IMG/VR virus record: IMGVR_UViG_2778261301_000015
Coordinates: 1-4,369 of that record
DNA: 4,369 nt
Source: a virus
Taxonomy: Duplodnaviria; Heunggongvirae; Uroviricota; Caudoviricetes
Strand: one strand, 5' to 3'
In this document: piece by piece, positions 1 to 4,369 of the stretch
How the letters are laid out: every line of letters begins with the position of its first letter
Position numbering within the stretch: position 1 is the first letter of the stretch
Notes under the pieces: generated by a model
What the model saw: the letters and a program-made list of their open reading frames with translations, nothing else
The model's database searches: none
What the model was told of the DNA's origin: nothing
Program-made: the position numbers and the translations under genes

Positions 1-825
1 TCAGGCACCAGAGGCGGCAAAAAATATCTCAGAAAGTTTCGTGGTGGAGAAGGAGACACTATCTGGCATGAAACAGTACAGGGCGGGGTTGTTCGCTGGG
101 CGACTGGTAATACTGATGCTCAGGAAGAATTATCACTCAGCTCCGCTTATGGTCTCCGTTCAAGAGGTGAGATTACATCAAGCAGTGCTAATGGTCTGCG
201 CATTGCTTATGGCAATTATGGATTCTTTATCAGGAATGATGGCAGCAGCACTTATTTTATGTTGACTAAATCAGGTGACAGATTAGGCACTTATAATAAT
301 TTAAGACCACTGATTATAAATGATGCCACGGGTGCTGTATCAATGGGGCATGGCCTGAGTGTTACTGGTGATATTGTCTCAAGTACCAAAGTACGTGCCG
401 GTAGCGGGAAAAAATTCACGGTCAGCAGCAGTAATACATCCACGAAGGAAGCCGCATTCAATTTGTGGGGAAACTCAAGTCGTCCGGTGGTGGCTGAATT
501 AGGTGATGATGCAGGCTGGCATTTTTACAGTCAGAGAAATACAGATAACAGCATCACTTTTGCTGTTAACGGGCAGGTATCACCATCTAACTATGGCAAC
601 TTTGATTCACGCTATGTCCGGGATATTCGGCTTGGTGGTGCTGCCACATACAAACCTGCGAACAATGGCATGACATGGACACATCAGGCACCGTCCGGGT
701 GTGTATATTCCGGCATTATTGTTCAGGATACCGGCTCAAACTCTGCCGATAACATTGGTGGCGTATATTACAGACCGGTGCAGAAATACATTAACGGGAC
801 TTGGTATAACGTGGCGCAGGTATAA
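1..825 (+). CDS. H: Tail fibre protein, C-terminal portion (P2 gpH-like); 5' end lies upstream of the window
   Basis: Frame 1 is open from base 1 to the TAA at 823-825 (translation begins SGTRGGKKYLRKFRGGEGDTIWHETVQGG..., ends ...YINGTWYNVAQV). The listed ORF 259-825 is only the part after an internal Met. The Gly/Ser/Thr/Asn-rich composition and the ending resemble P2-family tail fibre distal domains, and the gene is followed 3 nt later by a recognisable tail fibre assembly gene. Confidence 0.85.
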   Translation, partial: SGTRGGKKYLRKFRGGEGDTIWHETVQGGVVRWATGNTDAQEELSLSSAYGLRSRGEITSSSANGLRIAYGNYGFFIRNDGSSTYFMLTKSGDRLGTYNNLRPLIINDATGAVSMGHGLSVTGDIVSSTKVRAGSGKKFTVSSSNTSTKEAAFNLWGNSSRPVVAELGDDAGWHFYSQRNTDNSITFAVNGQVSPSNYGNFDSRYVRDIRLGGAATYKPANNGMTWTHQAPSGCVYSGIIVQDTGSNSADNIGGVYYRPVQKYINGTWYNVAQV

Positions 826-828
826 TTT

Positions 829-1356
829 ATGCAGCATTTGATAAATATAACGGCAGGTAATCCAAAAACGGTTGAACAATATCAATTAACAAGGGATTTT
901 GATGTTGTCTGGTTTTTTTCAGAAGATGGTAAGAACTGGTACGAAGAACAAAAGTATTTTGCTGATGACACGATAAAAATAGCGTACGACAAGGATAATA
1001 TCATCCGCTATGTGGAAAAGGATGTGACAGCTATCAGACCGGATGGATTAAGTGTTGTTGAAGTGGCGGATATTACTGCTAACCGACGGGCGGACATTTC
1101 AGGGGGCTGGATGTTTAAGGACGGCAAAGTGATTAAACGCATTTATACGGCAGAGGAATTGCAGCAGCAGGCAGAAAACCGGAAAGCCAGACTTCTTGCA
1201 GATGCTGAATCCGTGATTTTGCCGCTGGAGCGCGCTGTCAGGCTGAATATGGCTACAGAGGAGGAGCGCACACGACTGGAAGCATGGGAACGCTACAGCG
1301 TTCTGGTCAGTCGTGTGGATCCTGCAAATCCTGAATGGCCGGAAATGCCGCAATAA
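829..1356 (+). CDS. G: Tail fibre assembly protein / chaperone (P2 gpG-like)
   Basis: 175 aa ORF starting [40 protein letters not shown] and ending [21 protein letters not shown], which I recognise as closely resembling P2 gpG. The ATG at 829 lies 3 nt after the H stop with a GGT/AGG-like purine stretch upstream. Position and size match the P2 H-G arrangement. Confidence 0.9.
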
Positions 1357-1405
1357 GTTGTATGAGCTTACATACCTATAGCACAGAGTAAAGCCTAATC
1401 TGACA

Positions 1406-1436
1406 GTCCGCTCTGTGCCAAGAGCGGACGTTTATA
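1406..1436 (+). terminator. Candidate intrinsic terminator after the tail fibre genes
   Basis: Perfect 9-bp stem GTCCGCTCT (1406-1414) / AGAGCGGAC (1421-1429) with a 6-nt loop GTGCCA, followed by GTTTATAA. The T-tract is short and interrupted, so strength is uncertain. It lies 50 nt after the G stop. Confidence 0.45.
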
Positions 1437-1561
1437 ACATTATGAATAATTTATGTTAAAGCATGATTATGCCATTATAGTAGTCTCGCATTGAACTCTT
1501 CATGCCACCATTCTTGTTGGAGCAATTTGTATGATATAATAGTAATCATTACACTTAGTTC

Positions 1562-2485
1562 TTAATGAGGGTTCATTGTCAAATCAAGTGAGTCAGGCAG
1601 TGAATCTCTTTGTTCTTTGGTATAAACATGTAATTTAGCCTTAAAACCTAGAATATCACCTTCCATGGTTAAGAATCGCCCTTTCTCTGCAAAGAACATG
1701 GGATTAATATCTCTACGAACAACATCAGCAAACCAATTAGCTGATTTTGTGGCTTCCACTAACCAATTATGACATTCTTGAATCCATTGCTTATATTTTT
1801 CAACGTCTTCTTCATAATTAACATTCCAGCCACCAGTTTTATAAAATTTATCTGGATAATAAGTGTCTTCATAAAGTTTAGAATGTTCCATGAAAGTTTG
1901 AGCGGCTATGTTAAGGGTTATGGAAAATGTTTCAGTGGCTCTTCGCAGTTCATCAAACTCATTAGGCCATATAGCAGAAATGACTTTTTGCCGAAATTCA
2001 AATATATCATCGGGTAAATTTTTAGGCCACTTAGGATCTGATGATAATGCAAAGCTAGTCCAATTCTGCCAATTTTCTAAACGACAATATTTTACTGCGG
2101 AGTCAATTATTGAAGTTACTGAAACTTGCTTAGCTAGAAAAAATTTATCTTCAACTCTACTAAGAGTTTCAGAAACCCATAACTCATGTGCTGACTTAAC
2201 GTTATAGAGTTTTTCGGCTGGCCAATCTTCTACATTTCTATCAATTTCCGTATGATGGTTTGGGCAAAGGAGAATAAGATTGTGATAACTATTTCTTTCA
2301 TCCAGAGTTAAATTCGATTTTCCTCGAGCCGCATCTTCCTTCTCTCCAATAATATGTGCCTGTTCCCCCAGTGTAAATGCGGAATTAACGGAGTTCTTAT
2401 CCTGTGTCAACTCTCTCTTACAAATTGCACATCGATTTCCGGAACGCCCCCACAACAATTTGATGTCTTTTTGATTTATTGCCAT
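1562..2485 (-). CDS. HNH nuclease-domain protein with uncharacterised C-terminal domain (about 307 aa); candidate anti-phage / exclusion cargo gene
   Basis: Minus-strand ORF with stop TAA at 1564-1562. Numbering from the Met at 2485-2483 (MAINQKDIKLLWGRSGNRCAICKREL...), the protein has CxxC at residues 19-22, His44 in EQAHIIGE, Asn69 in YHNLILLC, and C74-P-N-H77-H78, which is the arrangement of a zinc-binding HNH fold. A Shine-Dalgarno-like AAGGGA lies 9 nt upstream of this ATG and a perfect TATAAT further upstream. The remaining roughly 230 residues (WPAEKLYNVKSAHELW...WNVNYEEDVEKYKQWIQECHNWL...) carry no motif I recognise. Confidence 0.75.
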   Translation of the reverse strand: MAINQKDIKLLWGRSGNRCAICKRELTQDKNSVNSAFTLGEQAHIIGEKEDAARGKSNLTLDERNSYHNLILLCPNHHTEIDRNVEDWPAEKLYNVKSAHELWVSETLSRVEDKFFLAKQVSVTSIIDSAVKYCRLENWQNWTSFALSSDPKWPKNLPDDIFEFRQKVISAIWPNEFDELRRATETFSITLNIAAQTFMEHSKLYEDTYYPDKFYKTGGWNVNYEEDVEKYKQWIQECHNWLVEATKSANWFADVVRRDINPMFFAEKGRFLTMEGDILGFKAKLHVYTKEQRDSLPDSLDLTMNPH

Positions 2486-2513
2486 GTTAAATATTCCCTT
2501 TGGGTGAGTTAAA

Positions 2514-2550
2514 CCCAATATTATAGTTTTTATATAAACAAAAAAAGTAG
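2514..2550 (-). promoter_or_regulatory. Candidate sigma70 promoter for the HNH gene
   Basis: On the minus strand there is a perfect -10 hexamer TATAAT (plus coordinates 2525-2520) preceded by an A/T-rich tract (TTTTTTTGTTTATATAAAAAC) that could act as an UP element. The -35 at 17-bp spacing (ACTTTT) is weak. The predicted transcript start near 2512 gives a leader of about 27 nt containing the AAGGGA ribosome-binding site. Confidence 0.35.
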
Positions 2551-2813
2551 TTTGCCAGAAATTATCATAAAAAAGATGCCTAAAGCCATCTTTCATTAAG
2601 TAATCAGAAAGGCCAAAGGTTGATATTTTCCCCTGGGGATTTTGTCAGGCCTAACCTGAAGGCATTCAATTCCCACTCGTTCTGCATCCTGATTAGCTGC
2701 CATTTGGCCGATATATTGGGTCGTTAAAACCTCATCAACGACGAGAAAAGGGGCAAACATCCGCTTCTTGCTCAAACAGGCGGTCAGATTTGACAGAATT
2801 TAGGTTACGTAAT

Positions 2814-2842
2814 TTGTCAGTTGGAAACTGAGAGAGTATAAA
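2814..2842 (+). promoter_or_regulatory. Candidate sigma70-like promoter on the + strand upstream of FI
   Basis: TTGTCA at 2814-2819 (5 of 6 matches to TTGACA), a 17-bp spacer, then TATAAA at 2837-2842 (5 of 6 matches to TATAAT). This is sequence pattern only, and its role relative to the expected Ogr-dependent late promoter is unknown. Confidence 0.2.
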
Positions 2843-2853
2843 TCAAGGCACCC

Positions 2854-2879
2854 GGCGGATTGCCCGCCTTTTCTTTATC
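2854..2879 (+). terminator. Terminator-like GC hairpin plus T-run (possible attenuator or leader structure)
   Basis: GGCGG (2854-2858), loop ATTGC, CCGCC (2864-2868), followed by TTTTCTTTATC (2869-2879). The stem is only 5 bp. It is oriented for + strand transcription and lies about 95 nt upstream of the FI start. Confidence 0.3.
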
Positions 2880-2972
2880 TGTTGTTTCATCCACTGACCA
2901 GCCAGGTCAAATAGCGTCTCATGTACTGCCCAACAGAAAATAGTTGCACCCATTAACCACGGAGTTAAACGG

Positions 2973-4163
2973 ATGAGTGACTATCATCACGGCGTGCAGG
3001 TGCTGGAGATTAACGACGGCACCCGCGTCATTTCCACCGTATCCACGGCCATTGTCGGCATGGTCTGTACGGCCAGCGATGCGGATGCCGAAACCTTCCC
3101 CCTCAATAAACCGGTACTGATTACCAATGTGCAGAGCGCAATTGCAAAGGCCGGTAAAAAAGGCACGCTGGCGGCGTCGTTACAGGCCATCGCTGACCAG
3201 TCAAAACCGGTCACCGTTGTTGTGCGTGTGGAAGACGGCACCGGCGACGACGAGGAAACGAAACTCGCGCAGACCGTTTCCAATATCATCGGCACCACCG
3301 ACGAAAACGGTCAGTACACCGGACTGAAAGCCCTGCTGGCGGCGGAGTCGGTAACTGGTGTTAAACCGCGTATTCTCGGCGTGCCGGGACTGGATACCAA
3401 AGAGGTGGCTGTTGCACTGGCATCAGTCTGTCAGAAGCTGCGCGCTTTCGGGTATATCAGCGCATGGGGCTGTAAAACCATTTCCGAGGTGAAAGCCTAC
3501 CGCCAGAATTTCAGCCAGCGTGAGCTGATGGTCATCTGGCCGGATTTCCTCGCATGGGATACGGTCACCAGTACCACCGCCACCGCGTATGCCACCGCTC
3601 GTGCACTGGGGCTGCGTGCCAAAATCGACCAGGAGCAGGGCTGGCATAAAACGCTGTCCAATGTCGGGGTGAACGGTGTTACCGGCATCAGCGCATCTGT
3701 ATTCTGGGATTTGCAGGAGTCCGGCACCGATGCTGACCTGCTTAACGAGTCAGGTGTCACAACGCTGATTCGCCGCGACGGTTTCCGCTTCTGGGGTAAC
3801 CGTACCTGCTCTGATGACCCACTGTTCCTCTTTGAAAACTACACCCGCACCGCGCAGGTGCTGGCCGACACGATGGCTGAGGCGCACATGTGGGCGGTGG
3901 ACAAGCCCATCACCGCAACGCTGATTCGCGACATCGTTGACGGCATCAATGCCAAATTCCGTGAGCTGAAAACAAACGGCTATATCGTGGATGCGACCTG
4001 CTGGTTCAGCGAAGAATCCAACGATGCGGAAACCCTCAAGGCCGGAAAACTGTATATCGACTACGACTATACACCGGTGCCTCCTCTCGAAAACCTGACC
4101 CTGCGCCAGCGTATTACCGATAAATACCTGGCAAATCTGGTCACCTCGGTTAACAGCAATTAA
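2973..4163 (+). CDS. FI: Contractile tail sheath protein (P2 gpFI)
   Basis: 396 aa ORF beginning MSDYHHGVQVLEINDGTRVISTVSTAIVGMVC and ending LANLVTSVNSN, which I recognise as P2-family tail sheath. GGAG at 2961-2964 sits 8 nt before the ATG. GC content is high and position-specific, typical of conserved P2 late genes. It is followed 12 nt later by the tail tube gene. Confidence 0.95.
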   Translation: MSDYHHGVQVLEINDGTRVISTVSTAIVGMVCTASDADAETFPLNKPVLITNVQSAIAKAGKKGTLAASLQAIADQSKPVTVVVRVEDGTGDDEETKLAQTVSNIIGTTDENGQYTGLKALLAAESVTGVKPRILGVPGLDTKEVAVALASVCQKLRAFGYISAWGCKTISEVKAYRQNFSQRELMVIWPDFLAWDTVTSTTATAYATARALGLRAKIDQEQGWHKTLSNVGVNGVTGISASVFWDLQESGTDADLLNESGVTTLIRRDGFRFWGNRTCSDDPLFLFENYTRTAQVLADTMAEAHMWAVDKPITATLIRDIVDGINAKFRELKTNGYIVDATCWFSEESNDAETLKAGKLYIDYDYTPVPPLENLTLRQRITDKYLANLVTSVNSN

Positions 4164-4175
4164 GGAGCCTGACCG

Positions 4176-4369
4176 ATGGCAATGCCGCGCAAACTCAAGT
4201 TAATGAACGTCTTTCTGAACGGCTACAGCTATCAGGGCGTTGCAAAGTCCGTCACGCTGCCAAAACTGACCCGTAAGCTCGAAAACTATCGCGGTGCGGG
4301 GATGAACGGCAGCGCACCGGTAGACCTCGGCCTTGATGACGATGCGCTGTCAATGGAGTGGTCGCTCGG
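4176..4369 (+). CDS. FII: Tail tube protein (P2 gpFII), N-terminal portion; 3' end lies beyond the window
   Basis: The ATG at 4176 is preceded by AGGAG at 4163-4167, which overlaps the FI stop. The translation MAMPRKLKLMNVFLNGYSYQGVAKSVTLPKLTRKLENYRGAGMNGSAPVDLGLDDDALSMEWSL runs open to the window end. I recognise it as the P2 FII N-terminus, and FI-FII synteny supports it. Confidence 0.9.
   Translation, partial: MAMPRKLKLMNVFLNGYSYQGVAKSVTLPKLTRKLENYRGAGMNGSAPVDLGLDDDALSMEWSL

Follow-up and report, generated by a model that had tools for sequence, protein, structure and literature searches.

The DNA stretch analysed here (the window; 4,369 nucleotides, positions 1 to 4,369 of the IMG/VR virus record IMGVR_UViG_2778261301_000015) is a piece of a P2-like Escherichia coli prophage. 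On its minus strand it carries a gene for a 307-amino-acid protein, in which a predicted HNH nuclease is followed by a C-terminal domain (CTD) of about 190 residues. Profile searches place the same CTD behind at least eight unrelated kinds of predicted immune effector domain, with HNH among or beside them, in solitary genes. We give a probability of roughly 0.55 to the reading that the gene encodes a one-protein anti-phage (abortive-infection) nuclease, of which the CTD is the sensor or regulatory module. Position numbers refer to the window and residue numbers to the 307-amino-acid protein.

Nuclease module and C-terminal domain

The open reading frame (ORF) at positions 1562-2596 (minus strand, 344 amino acids) contains all three peptides quoted in an initial annotation of this DNA. 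It harbours a real gene, because it has many full-length homologues and a low ratio of non-synonymous to synonymous substitution rates (dN/dS). The homologues found number 900, and the best 120 of them are full length and share 58-84% identity. The dN/dS ratio is about 0.08-0.1 in both halves of the protein, with synonymous sites being saturated; the nuclease half and the CTD are under equally strong purifying selection. Also, conservation of the CTD is nearly equal to that of the nuclease in an alignment of 44 homologues.

Database matches assign the N-terminal ~110 residues to an HNH (His-Me finger) nuclease of the Cap5/SPARHA clade. The Pfam family HNH_2 was matched at 1.5e-6, above its cut-off. 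The PADLOC models SAVED_HNH (HNH-SAVED effectors of CBASS; 1e-29) and PDC-M68A (4e-31) were matched by the N-terminal ~110 residues only. The closest solved HNH structure is the SPARHA HNH-APAZ protein (9om4_A; 5.9e-24, query residues 1-127), while profile matches to Cap5 ranged from 8e-13 to 1e-8 (7rwk, 8e-13, query residues 2-109; also 8fm1 and 9dif). Membership in PDC-M68 was rejected since PDC-M68A is matched over its HNH part only (profile positions 5-114 of 253). The PDC systems are unpublished candidates.

Roles of individual HNH residues were transferred from their equivalents in the SPARHA study (PMC12738770). The zinc ligands C19, C22, C74, and H77 (CCCH), the catalytic residues H44, N69, and H78, and the bridging residue E41 are invariant or nearly so in the 44 homologues, and the N-terminal helix KxLWGR is conserved. 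As read from the sequence, the nuclease active site is intact. E41 aligns with E43 of the Aca and E50 of the Mlla protein; its counterpart is the 'bridge' glutamate linking HNH dimers in Cap5 and SPARHA, and the equivalent HNH residues are needed for SPARHA activity (PMC12738770). Members of this HNH clade are activated by tetramer or filament formation in Cap5 and SPARHA, which builds a double active site, and the activated enzymes cut double-stranded DNA with little specificity (PMC12738770). Many different sensor platforms are found joined to HNH domains of this clade, STAND and ABC-3C associations among them (PMC12738770).

Residues 80 to ~110, including the helix WPAEKLYNVKSAHELWVSE, align with the HNH modules of SPARHA 9om4 and Cap5. 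This helix therefore belongs to the nuclease module. The initial annotation had described an unexplained extension of about 230 residues that follows the HNH core. The extension is real and coding, but it comprises about 190 residues (~110-300); the region as first drawn begins at T79, inside the HNH core, and its boundary was about 30 residues too generous.

The CTD is predicted to be a discrete folded domain. In the AlphaFold2 model of the full-length protein, the predicted local distance difference test score (pLDDT) of the CTD exceeds 90. Modelled alone, the CTD reached a pLDDT of 85 and a predicted template-modelling score of 0.84. The predicted fold consists of five long helices and two beta-hairpins. 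Other features ascribed to the extension from the outset were borne out. Namely, it has no recognisable motif (no match in Pfam, PADLOC, PHROGs, or NCBIfam) and no transmembrane segment (maximum Kyte-Doolittle mean over 19 residues, 0.81), and it is enriched in Trp (4.0%), Phe (7.1%), Tyr (4.0%), Glu (8.1%), and Lys (8.1%). The CTD is acidic, with an isoelectric point of 5.3.

Structure prediction and structural and profile searches, the route suggested in that annotation, gave a confident fold and no match to a characterised domain in the libraries searched: neither the sequence profiles nor the fold of the CTD found a counterpart in PDB, and a Foldseek search against viral structures returned no match. 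Pfam had no model for the CTD in any of 21 diverse members. The CTD and its family appear to be undescribed in Pfam 2025, PADLOC 2023, PHROGs, NCBIfam 2026, PDB 2026, and the papers searched. The only name given to family members in any source is 'HNH endonuclease', and no paper mentioning the accession of the protein was found. The modular sensor-effector defence protein and the Cap5-type HNH effector are kinds already known.

Effector partners and function of the CTD

A CTD-only profile was searched against 1.8 billion representative proteins (cut-off E ≤ 1e-3) and identified 587 proteins. Among the best 150 of these, an HNH domain stands in front of the CTD in 67 and another N-terminal domain in 28. 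The Pfam domains preceding the CTD include HNH, TIR/SEFIR, DUF4062, SIR2, PNP_UDP_1 phosphorylase, caspase, CHAT, the alpha/beta-hydrolase DUF676, and HetE-N. PADLOC models recognised the N-termini as ThsB TIR (8e-38), LmuA-type SIR2 (3e-60 in the SIR2-CTD protein P0206, where the match spans residues 3-234, the SIR2 part only), CBASS PNP, caspase, CHAT, and bSEFIR; no PADLOC match of a CTD-bearing protein covers the CTD in a way that holds up.

Fragments aside, the CTD ends the protein or comes close to its end: most representatives have little sequence beyond it, and P0213 and P0270 have about 80-106 further residues. It is never N-terminal in a long protein. The four residues listed as invariant in Table 1 are so across all effector classes. 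The CTDs of SIR2 and TIR proteins are up to 63-67% identical, which points to recent effector swapping. The domain ranges over at least eight bacterial phyla and is also present on phages and satellites.

A few CTD proteins (P0139, P0265, P0246, and the one encoded at 3395-4141 of locus L095) possess 40-200 N-terminal residues that match nothing in Pfam or PADLOC and may be further effector domains. Proteins that seemed to consist of the CTD alone were considered as free-standing regulators or decoys. This was rejected, as most of them are frameshifted genes or contig-edge fragments. In seven loci (L020, L030, L052, L088, L104, L137, and L142), the gene is split by a frameshift that puts the tail out of frame with the HNH or the TIR part; one frameshifted homologue adjoins an IS110-type transposase. 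Such splits may reflect genuine loss of a gene that is costly to keep, or they may be artefacts of assembling metagenome bins.

Gene neighbourhoods were compared in 46 genome loci and 80 metagenome loci, the latter from a scan with the CTD subgroup alignment A5. The genome loci represent Proteobacteria, Bacteroidota, Cyanobacteria, Acidobacteriota, Chloroflexota, Deinococcota, Planctomycetota, and Myxococcota. All-against-all BLAST of the neighbours in both sets revealed no family present in more than three loci, and annotation of 148 neighbours with Pfam and PADLOC revealed none present in more than three of the 148. The SIR2-CTD and TIR-CTD genes are solitary as well. Pentapeptide-repeat proteins encoded next to three TIR-CTD genes were judged to be coincidental, and a 302-amino-acid gene upstream of the homologue in Pseudoalteromonas, considered as a possible paralogue, proved to be unrelated. 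Defence genes occur only sporadically among the neighbours. These include type I restriction-modification genes, Gabija-, Septu-, and PARIS-like ATPases, ShosA (Shosta), a dGTPase, and a McrB-like gene.

Because the CTD is found behind many immune effectors that are unrelated to one another, in genes that do not depend on a neighbour, we regard it as a regulatory or sensing module. The sensor or restraint role first proposed for the extension thereby gains comparative support; the defence function, the trigger, and activation by oligomerisation are what we infer beyond that. The CTD would take the place of SAVED in Cap5, or of APAZ plus Argonaute in SPARHA. It would hold the effector off in uninfected lysogens, recognise an infection cue, and, by analogy with Cap5 and SPARHA, activate the effector through a change in how the protein oligomerises. 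The active HNH assembly, in the form of tetramers or filaments with a composite double active site, would then cleave double-stranded DNA and show little preference for particular sequences. That the CTD is so strongly conserved across phyla suggests a conserved or universal cue, for instance a metabolite or another small molecule, a factor of the host, or some general aspect of infection, and not a variable phage protein. A universal cue of this kind makes the trigger worth finding.

A broader proposal, which we put forward tentatively, is that the CTD defines a widespread family of minimal one-protein immune sensors, that is, an NTPase-free module of ~190 residues that detects a conserved cue on its own and activates the killing domain in front of it, be this a nuclease, an NADase, a protease, a nucleosidase, a lipase-like hydrolase, or a pore-former-like domain. 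If true, a compact and very conserved sensing module would drive at least eight immune effectors from a single small protein. It would offer a simple system for studying how infection is recognised and how a single switch can serve many outputs. A further gain would be a family that PADLOC 2023, a library that catches the N-terminal effector parts only, does not recognise as such.

Several observations weigh against a defence nuclease with a sensory CTD. About half of the neighbourhoods consist of ordinary housekeeping genes and are not defence islands. Cross-phylum conservation as strong as that of the CTD is unusual for domains that directly bind fast-evolving phage proteins. The HNH part of the full-length AlphaFold2 model is of low confidence (pLDDT 50-70). 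The only validated protein that PADLOC links to CTD bearers, bSEFIR, does not itself possess the CTD. Finally, a literature search (for the accession, PDC-M68, and HNH proteins in P2 hotspots) revealed no phage-defence experiment on a member of this family.

Other functions of the CTD were weighed against the same evidence. One, which we consider unlikely, is that of an adaptor docking the effector onto a sensing machine encoded elsewhere, for example, a STAND/NLR ATPase with the same domain or an SMC complex of the Lamassu/ABC-3C type. The effector repertoire agrees with this option, being the same as on bacterial NLR-like proteins and Lamassu LmuA, as do the match of the P0206 SIR2 domain to the LmuA model (3e-60) and the STAND and ABC-3C associations listed for this HNH clade (PMC12738770). 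It is weakened by the lack of a recurrent neighbour or a homotypic partner.

Equally unlikely in our estimate is a small-molecule receptor that responds to a second messenger from an unlinked host system or to an infection-linked metabolite, which would make the protein an orphan Cap5-like effector without its own cyclase. The second-messenger version is a possible variant of the sensor idea. However, none of the loci examined links the CTD gene to a cyclase, a TIR-synthase, or another gene that would produce a signal, the fold of the CTD is unlike SAVED, CARF, or SLOG, and ligand-binding bundles match it no better than designed helical bundles do.

Less probable still is a selfish addiction or competition module, in which the CTD would act in cis as an antitoxin or immunity domain that masks a toxic effector and is lost under stress. 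Solitary genes on a prophage, a satellite, and integrative elements, and beside insertion sequence elements, would suit such a module, and frameshifts in several copies are what one would expect of a costly toxin. On the other hand, the matched effector types are those of defence systems, the gene is located in the P2-like tail-gene region where a defence hotspot has been reported (PMC13586616), and such strong conservation would be surprising in a domain that does no more than mask catalytic folds as different as these.

The least likely option makes the protein a restriction nuclease, either modification-dependent (type IV-like) or sequence-specific, with the CTD as its DNA-recognition domain: many HNH restriction enzymes do pair the nuclease with a DNA-reader domain (PMC12738770), and a specificity role had been suggested in the initial annotation, but the CTD also occurs in fusion with TIR, SIR2, PNP, caspase, and hydrolase domains, none of which acts on or cuts DNA, it has no similarity to SRA, EVE, McrA, or other readers in Pfam or PDB, and its acidity argues weakly in the same direction.

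Gene boundaries and prophage setting

The coordinates of the gene, its parts, and the flanking prophage genes are listed in Table 1.

Table 1. Features located in the 4,369-nucleotide window
Feature	Position	Strand	Basis or remark
Tail fibre gene, 3' end	259-825	+	Part of the P2-like prophage
Left flank: tail-fibre-assembly gene (P2 G-like)	829-1356	+	Pfam Caudo_TAP, 2e-34; RefSeq annotation
Coding sequence of the 307-amino-acid HNH-CTD protein	1565-2485 (stop codon 1562-1564)	-	ORF; homologue lengths and starts; AAGGGA; dN/dS
C-terminal tail, residues 301-307 (...DLTMNPH), in DNA common to other prophages	1565-1585	-	Probable recombination junction
CTD, residues ~110-300 (~190 amino acids)	~1586-2158	-	Predicted helical bundle with two beta-hairpins; W139, P174, N250, R257 invariant
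HNH nuclease module, residues 1-109, Cap5/SPARHA clade (assigned)	2159-2485	-	Pfam, PADLOC, and PDB profile matches
PGAP-annotated N-terminus, 37 codons; likely 5' leader or promoter DNA	2486-2596	-	Missing from homologues of 302-306 amino acids
Shine-Dalgarno-like AAGGGA, 9 nucleotides upstream of ATG 2485	2495-2500	-	Sequence reading
Low-GC single-gene cargo, approximate extent	1589-2751		GC profile; genome distribution; replaced in a relative
Right flank: tail sheath gene (P2 FI-like)	2973-4163	+	Pfam Phage_sheath_1, 1e-33; RefSeq annotation

The RefSeq/PGAP annotation starts the protein at ATG 2596 and gives it 344 amino acids. The true start is most likely ATG 2485, 37 codons downstream, because AAGGGA precedes it by 9 nucleotides, the homologues are 302-306 amino acids long and begin with MAINQKD, as the 307-residue protein would, and some database records already use this start. 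Positions 2486-2596 are then probably not coding. A -10-like TATAAT (2520-2525, minus strand) is present within this putative leader, and an inverted repeat with a 6-bp stem (2500-2518), placed between TATAAT and the ribosome-binding site, could be an operator or a leader hairpin. The TATAAT site was not among the sites listed by a promoter scan, and its -35 region is poor. No terminator-like site was found for the minus-strand HNH-CTD gene.

A small upstream ORF (2596-2775, minus strand, 59 amino acids, TTG start) was considered as a gene and as a partner or antitoxin, and was rejected because it has no family match, is partly prophage backbone, and is annotated in one strain only. That strain is STEC1588, where a T-to-A change removes the stop codon and a 'hypothetical protein' of 99 amino acids is annotated (L138, 2699-2998). 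Two GC-rich hairpins were detected on the plus strand: one with a 9-bp stem after the tail-fibre-assembly gene (1406-1429), the other, accompanied by a T-run, upstream of the sheath gene (2854-2868).

In a RefSeq genome with a 99.9% identical copy of the window, the surrounding 30 kb form a complete P2-type prophage, and the sole gene annotated between the assembly and sheath genes encodes an 'HNH endonuclease signature motif containing protein'. The gene is accessory cargo (a 'moron') in a variable slot of the P2-like prophage. Its guanine-plus-cytosine (GC) content is 35%, compared to 44-59% in the flanks. The whole stretch is present in only 9 of 5426 complete E. coli genomes, matches to the flanks (1400-1588 and 2752-2900) occur in hundreds of other prophages, and a different gene, of 197 amino acids, occupies the same spot in one related P2-like prophage. 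From the rarity of the whole stretch, the commonness of its flanks, and the different gene in the relative, the cargo is delimited as a single gene. The slot between G and FI is also the site at which phage P2 carries its accessory gene Z/fun. The tail-gene region of P2 has been reported as a defence hotspot, with the tail hotspot named as 'downstream of GpL' (PMC13586616); we infer that the G/FI junction slot is this hotspot.

The 3' end of the gene reaches into the left flank. The homologues stop at ...PDSLDL, and the last five to seven residues (TMNPH) are missing from them. Window positions 1410-1588, which include the last eight codons, have a counterpart at 89% identity in lambdoid prophages, where it lies downstream of the tail fibre genes and adjoins a retron Eco8 locus. 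Positions 1410-1588 look like a common recombination flank, with the junction within the 3' end of the gene.

Close relatives of the gene were found in an Enterobacter P4-like satellite, in integrative elements, and in other prophages. The satellite homologue (L002-L005 and L140, ~5990-10090) is 76% identical, lies between the primase gene and host DNA, and is followed by a gene for a 348-amino-acid protein without known function. A P2-like phage and a P4-like satellite thus carry related cargo, whereas exchange of defence genes between the two is rare according to a recent paper. The main P2 defence hotspot, located between the replication and portal genes, lies in the same prophage outside the window (L001, 772-2243). 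It contains two unannotated genes (243 and 218 amino acids) and a DUF3850 gene, and may hold a second cargo.

Comparison with known systems

Cap5 (7rwk, 8fm1/8fmf) resembles the window protein in its N-terminal HNH of the same clade, in the order of nuclease first and regulatory domain second, and in being one polypeptide of 300-390 amino acids. The activation logic of Cap5, with an active site built by oligomerisation, is probably the same here. The difference is in the C-terminal domain, which is a predicted helical bundle in the window protein and not SAVED. No CD-NTase or cyclase gene is present near the HNH-CTD gene in the prophage, and no neighbour recurs in the 126 loci.

SPARHA of the Aca type (AcaSPARHA, 9om4; PMC12738770) provides the closest solved HNH, the likeness extending to the helix after the core and to the catalytic, zinc-binding, and bridging residues. 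The window protein differs in having no APAZ, as the match to 9om4 ends at residue 127, and neither an adjacent short Argonaute gene nor any other Argonaute or PIWI protein was found among the neighbours.

Lamassu LmuA and ABC-3C proteins are built alike, with an N-terminal effector that varies and a C-terminal domain that is conserved. The LmuA model does not match the window protein, nor was a structural match to LmuA obtained. Genes for LmuB (SMC) or LmuC were absent from the window, its prophage, and every locus compared, and SMC_N was detected in only 2 of the 148 neighbours.

Bacterial NLR-like or STAND proteins (Avs, bNACHT) draw on the same menu of N-terminal effectors and also combine sensing and killing in one polypeptide. 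The window protein differs from these by the absence of an NTPase domain and by the size of its entire 'sensor', which is ~190 residues. It differs from type IV and other modification-dependent HNH enzymes in that its CTD matches no SRA, EVE, McrA-N, or like domain.

The bSEFIR protein of Bacillus sp. NIO-1130 (Millman et al., bioRxiv 10.1101/2022.05.11.491447) is a validated one-gene system with an effector-like N-terminus and an uncharacterised C-terminal region. The window protein carries an HNH at its N-terminus and no SEFIR. The PADLOC bSEFIR model picks up SEFIR-CTD proteins (6.5e-76). In three of these (P0232, P0211, and P0257), the model, PDLC03957, aligns 115-200 residues into the CTD, while closely related CTDs on SIR2 or TIR proteins have no match to it. 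Either some seeds of PDLC03957 carry the CTD or HMMER over-extends the alignment. The validated bSEFIR (468 amino acids) was considered as a CTD bearer and rejected (hhalign probability 0.1% for the first 399 of 468 residues), and the CTD was not found in the group of SEFIR proteins of 477-485 amino acids. Current tools would call SEFIR-CTD proteins bSEFIR despite a C-terminus unlike that of the validated protein. Since bSEFIR has no CTD, it is a precedent for the architecture only, namely, for an effector and an uncharacterised C-terminal region in one gene.

P2 Z/fun and other cargo of the tail region resemble the window gene in occupying the same slot between G and FI, in low GC content, and in being exchangeable. 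Candidate defence genes other than the known Z/fun gene also occupy the G/FI slot in P2-like prophages.

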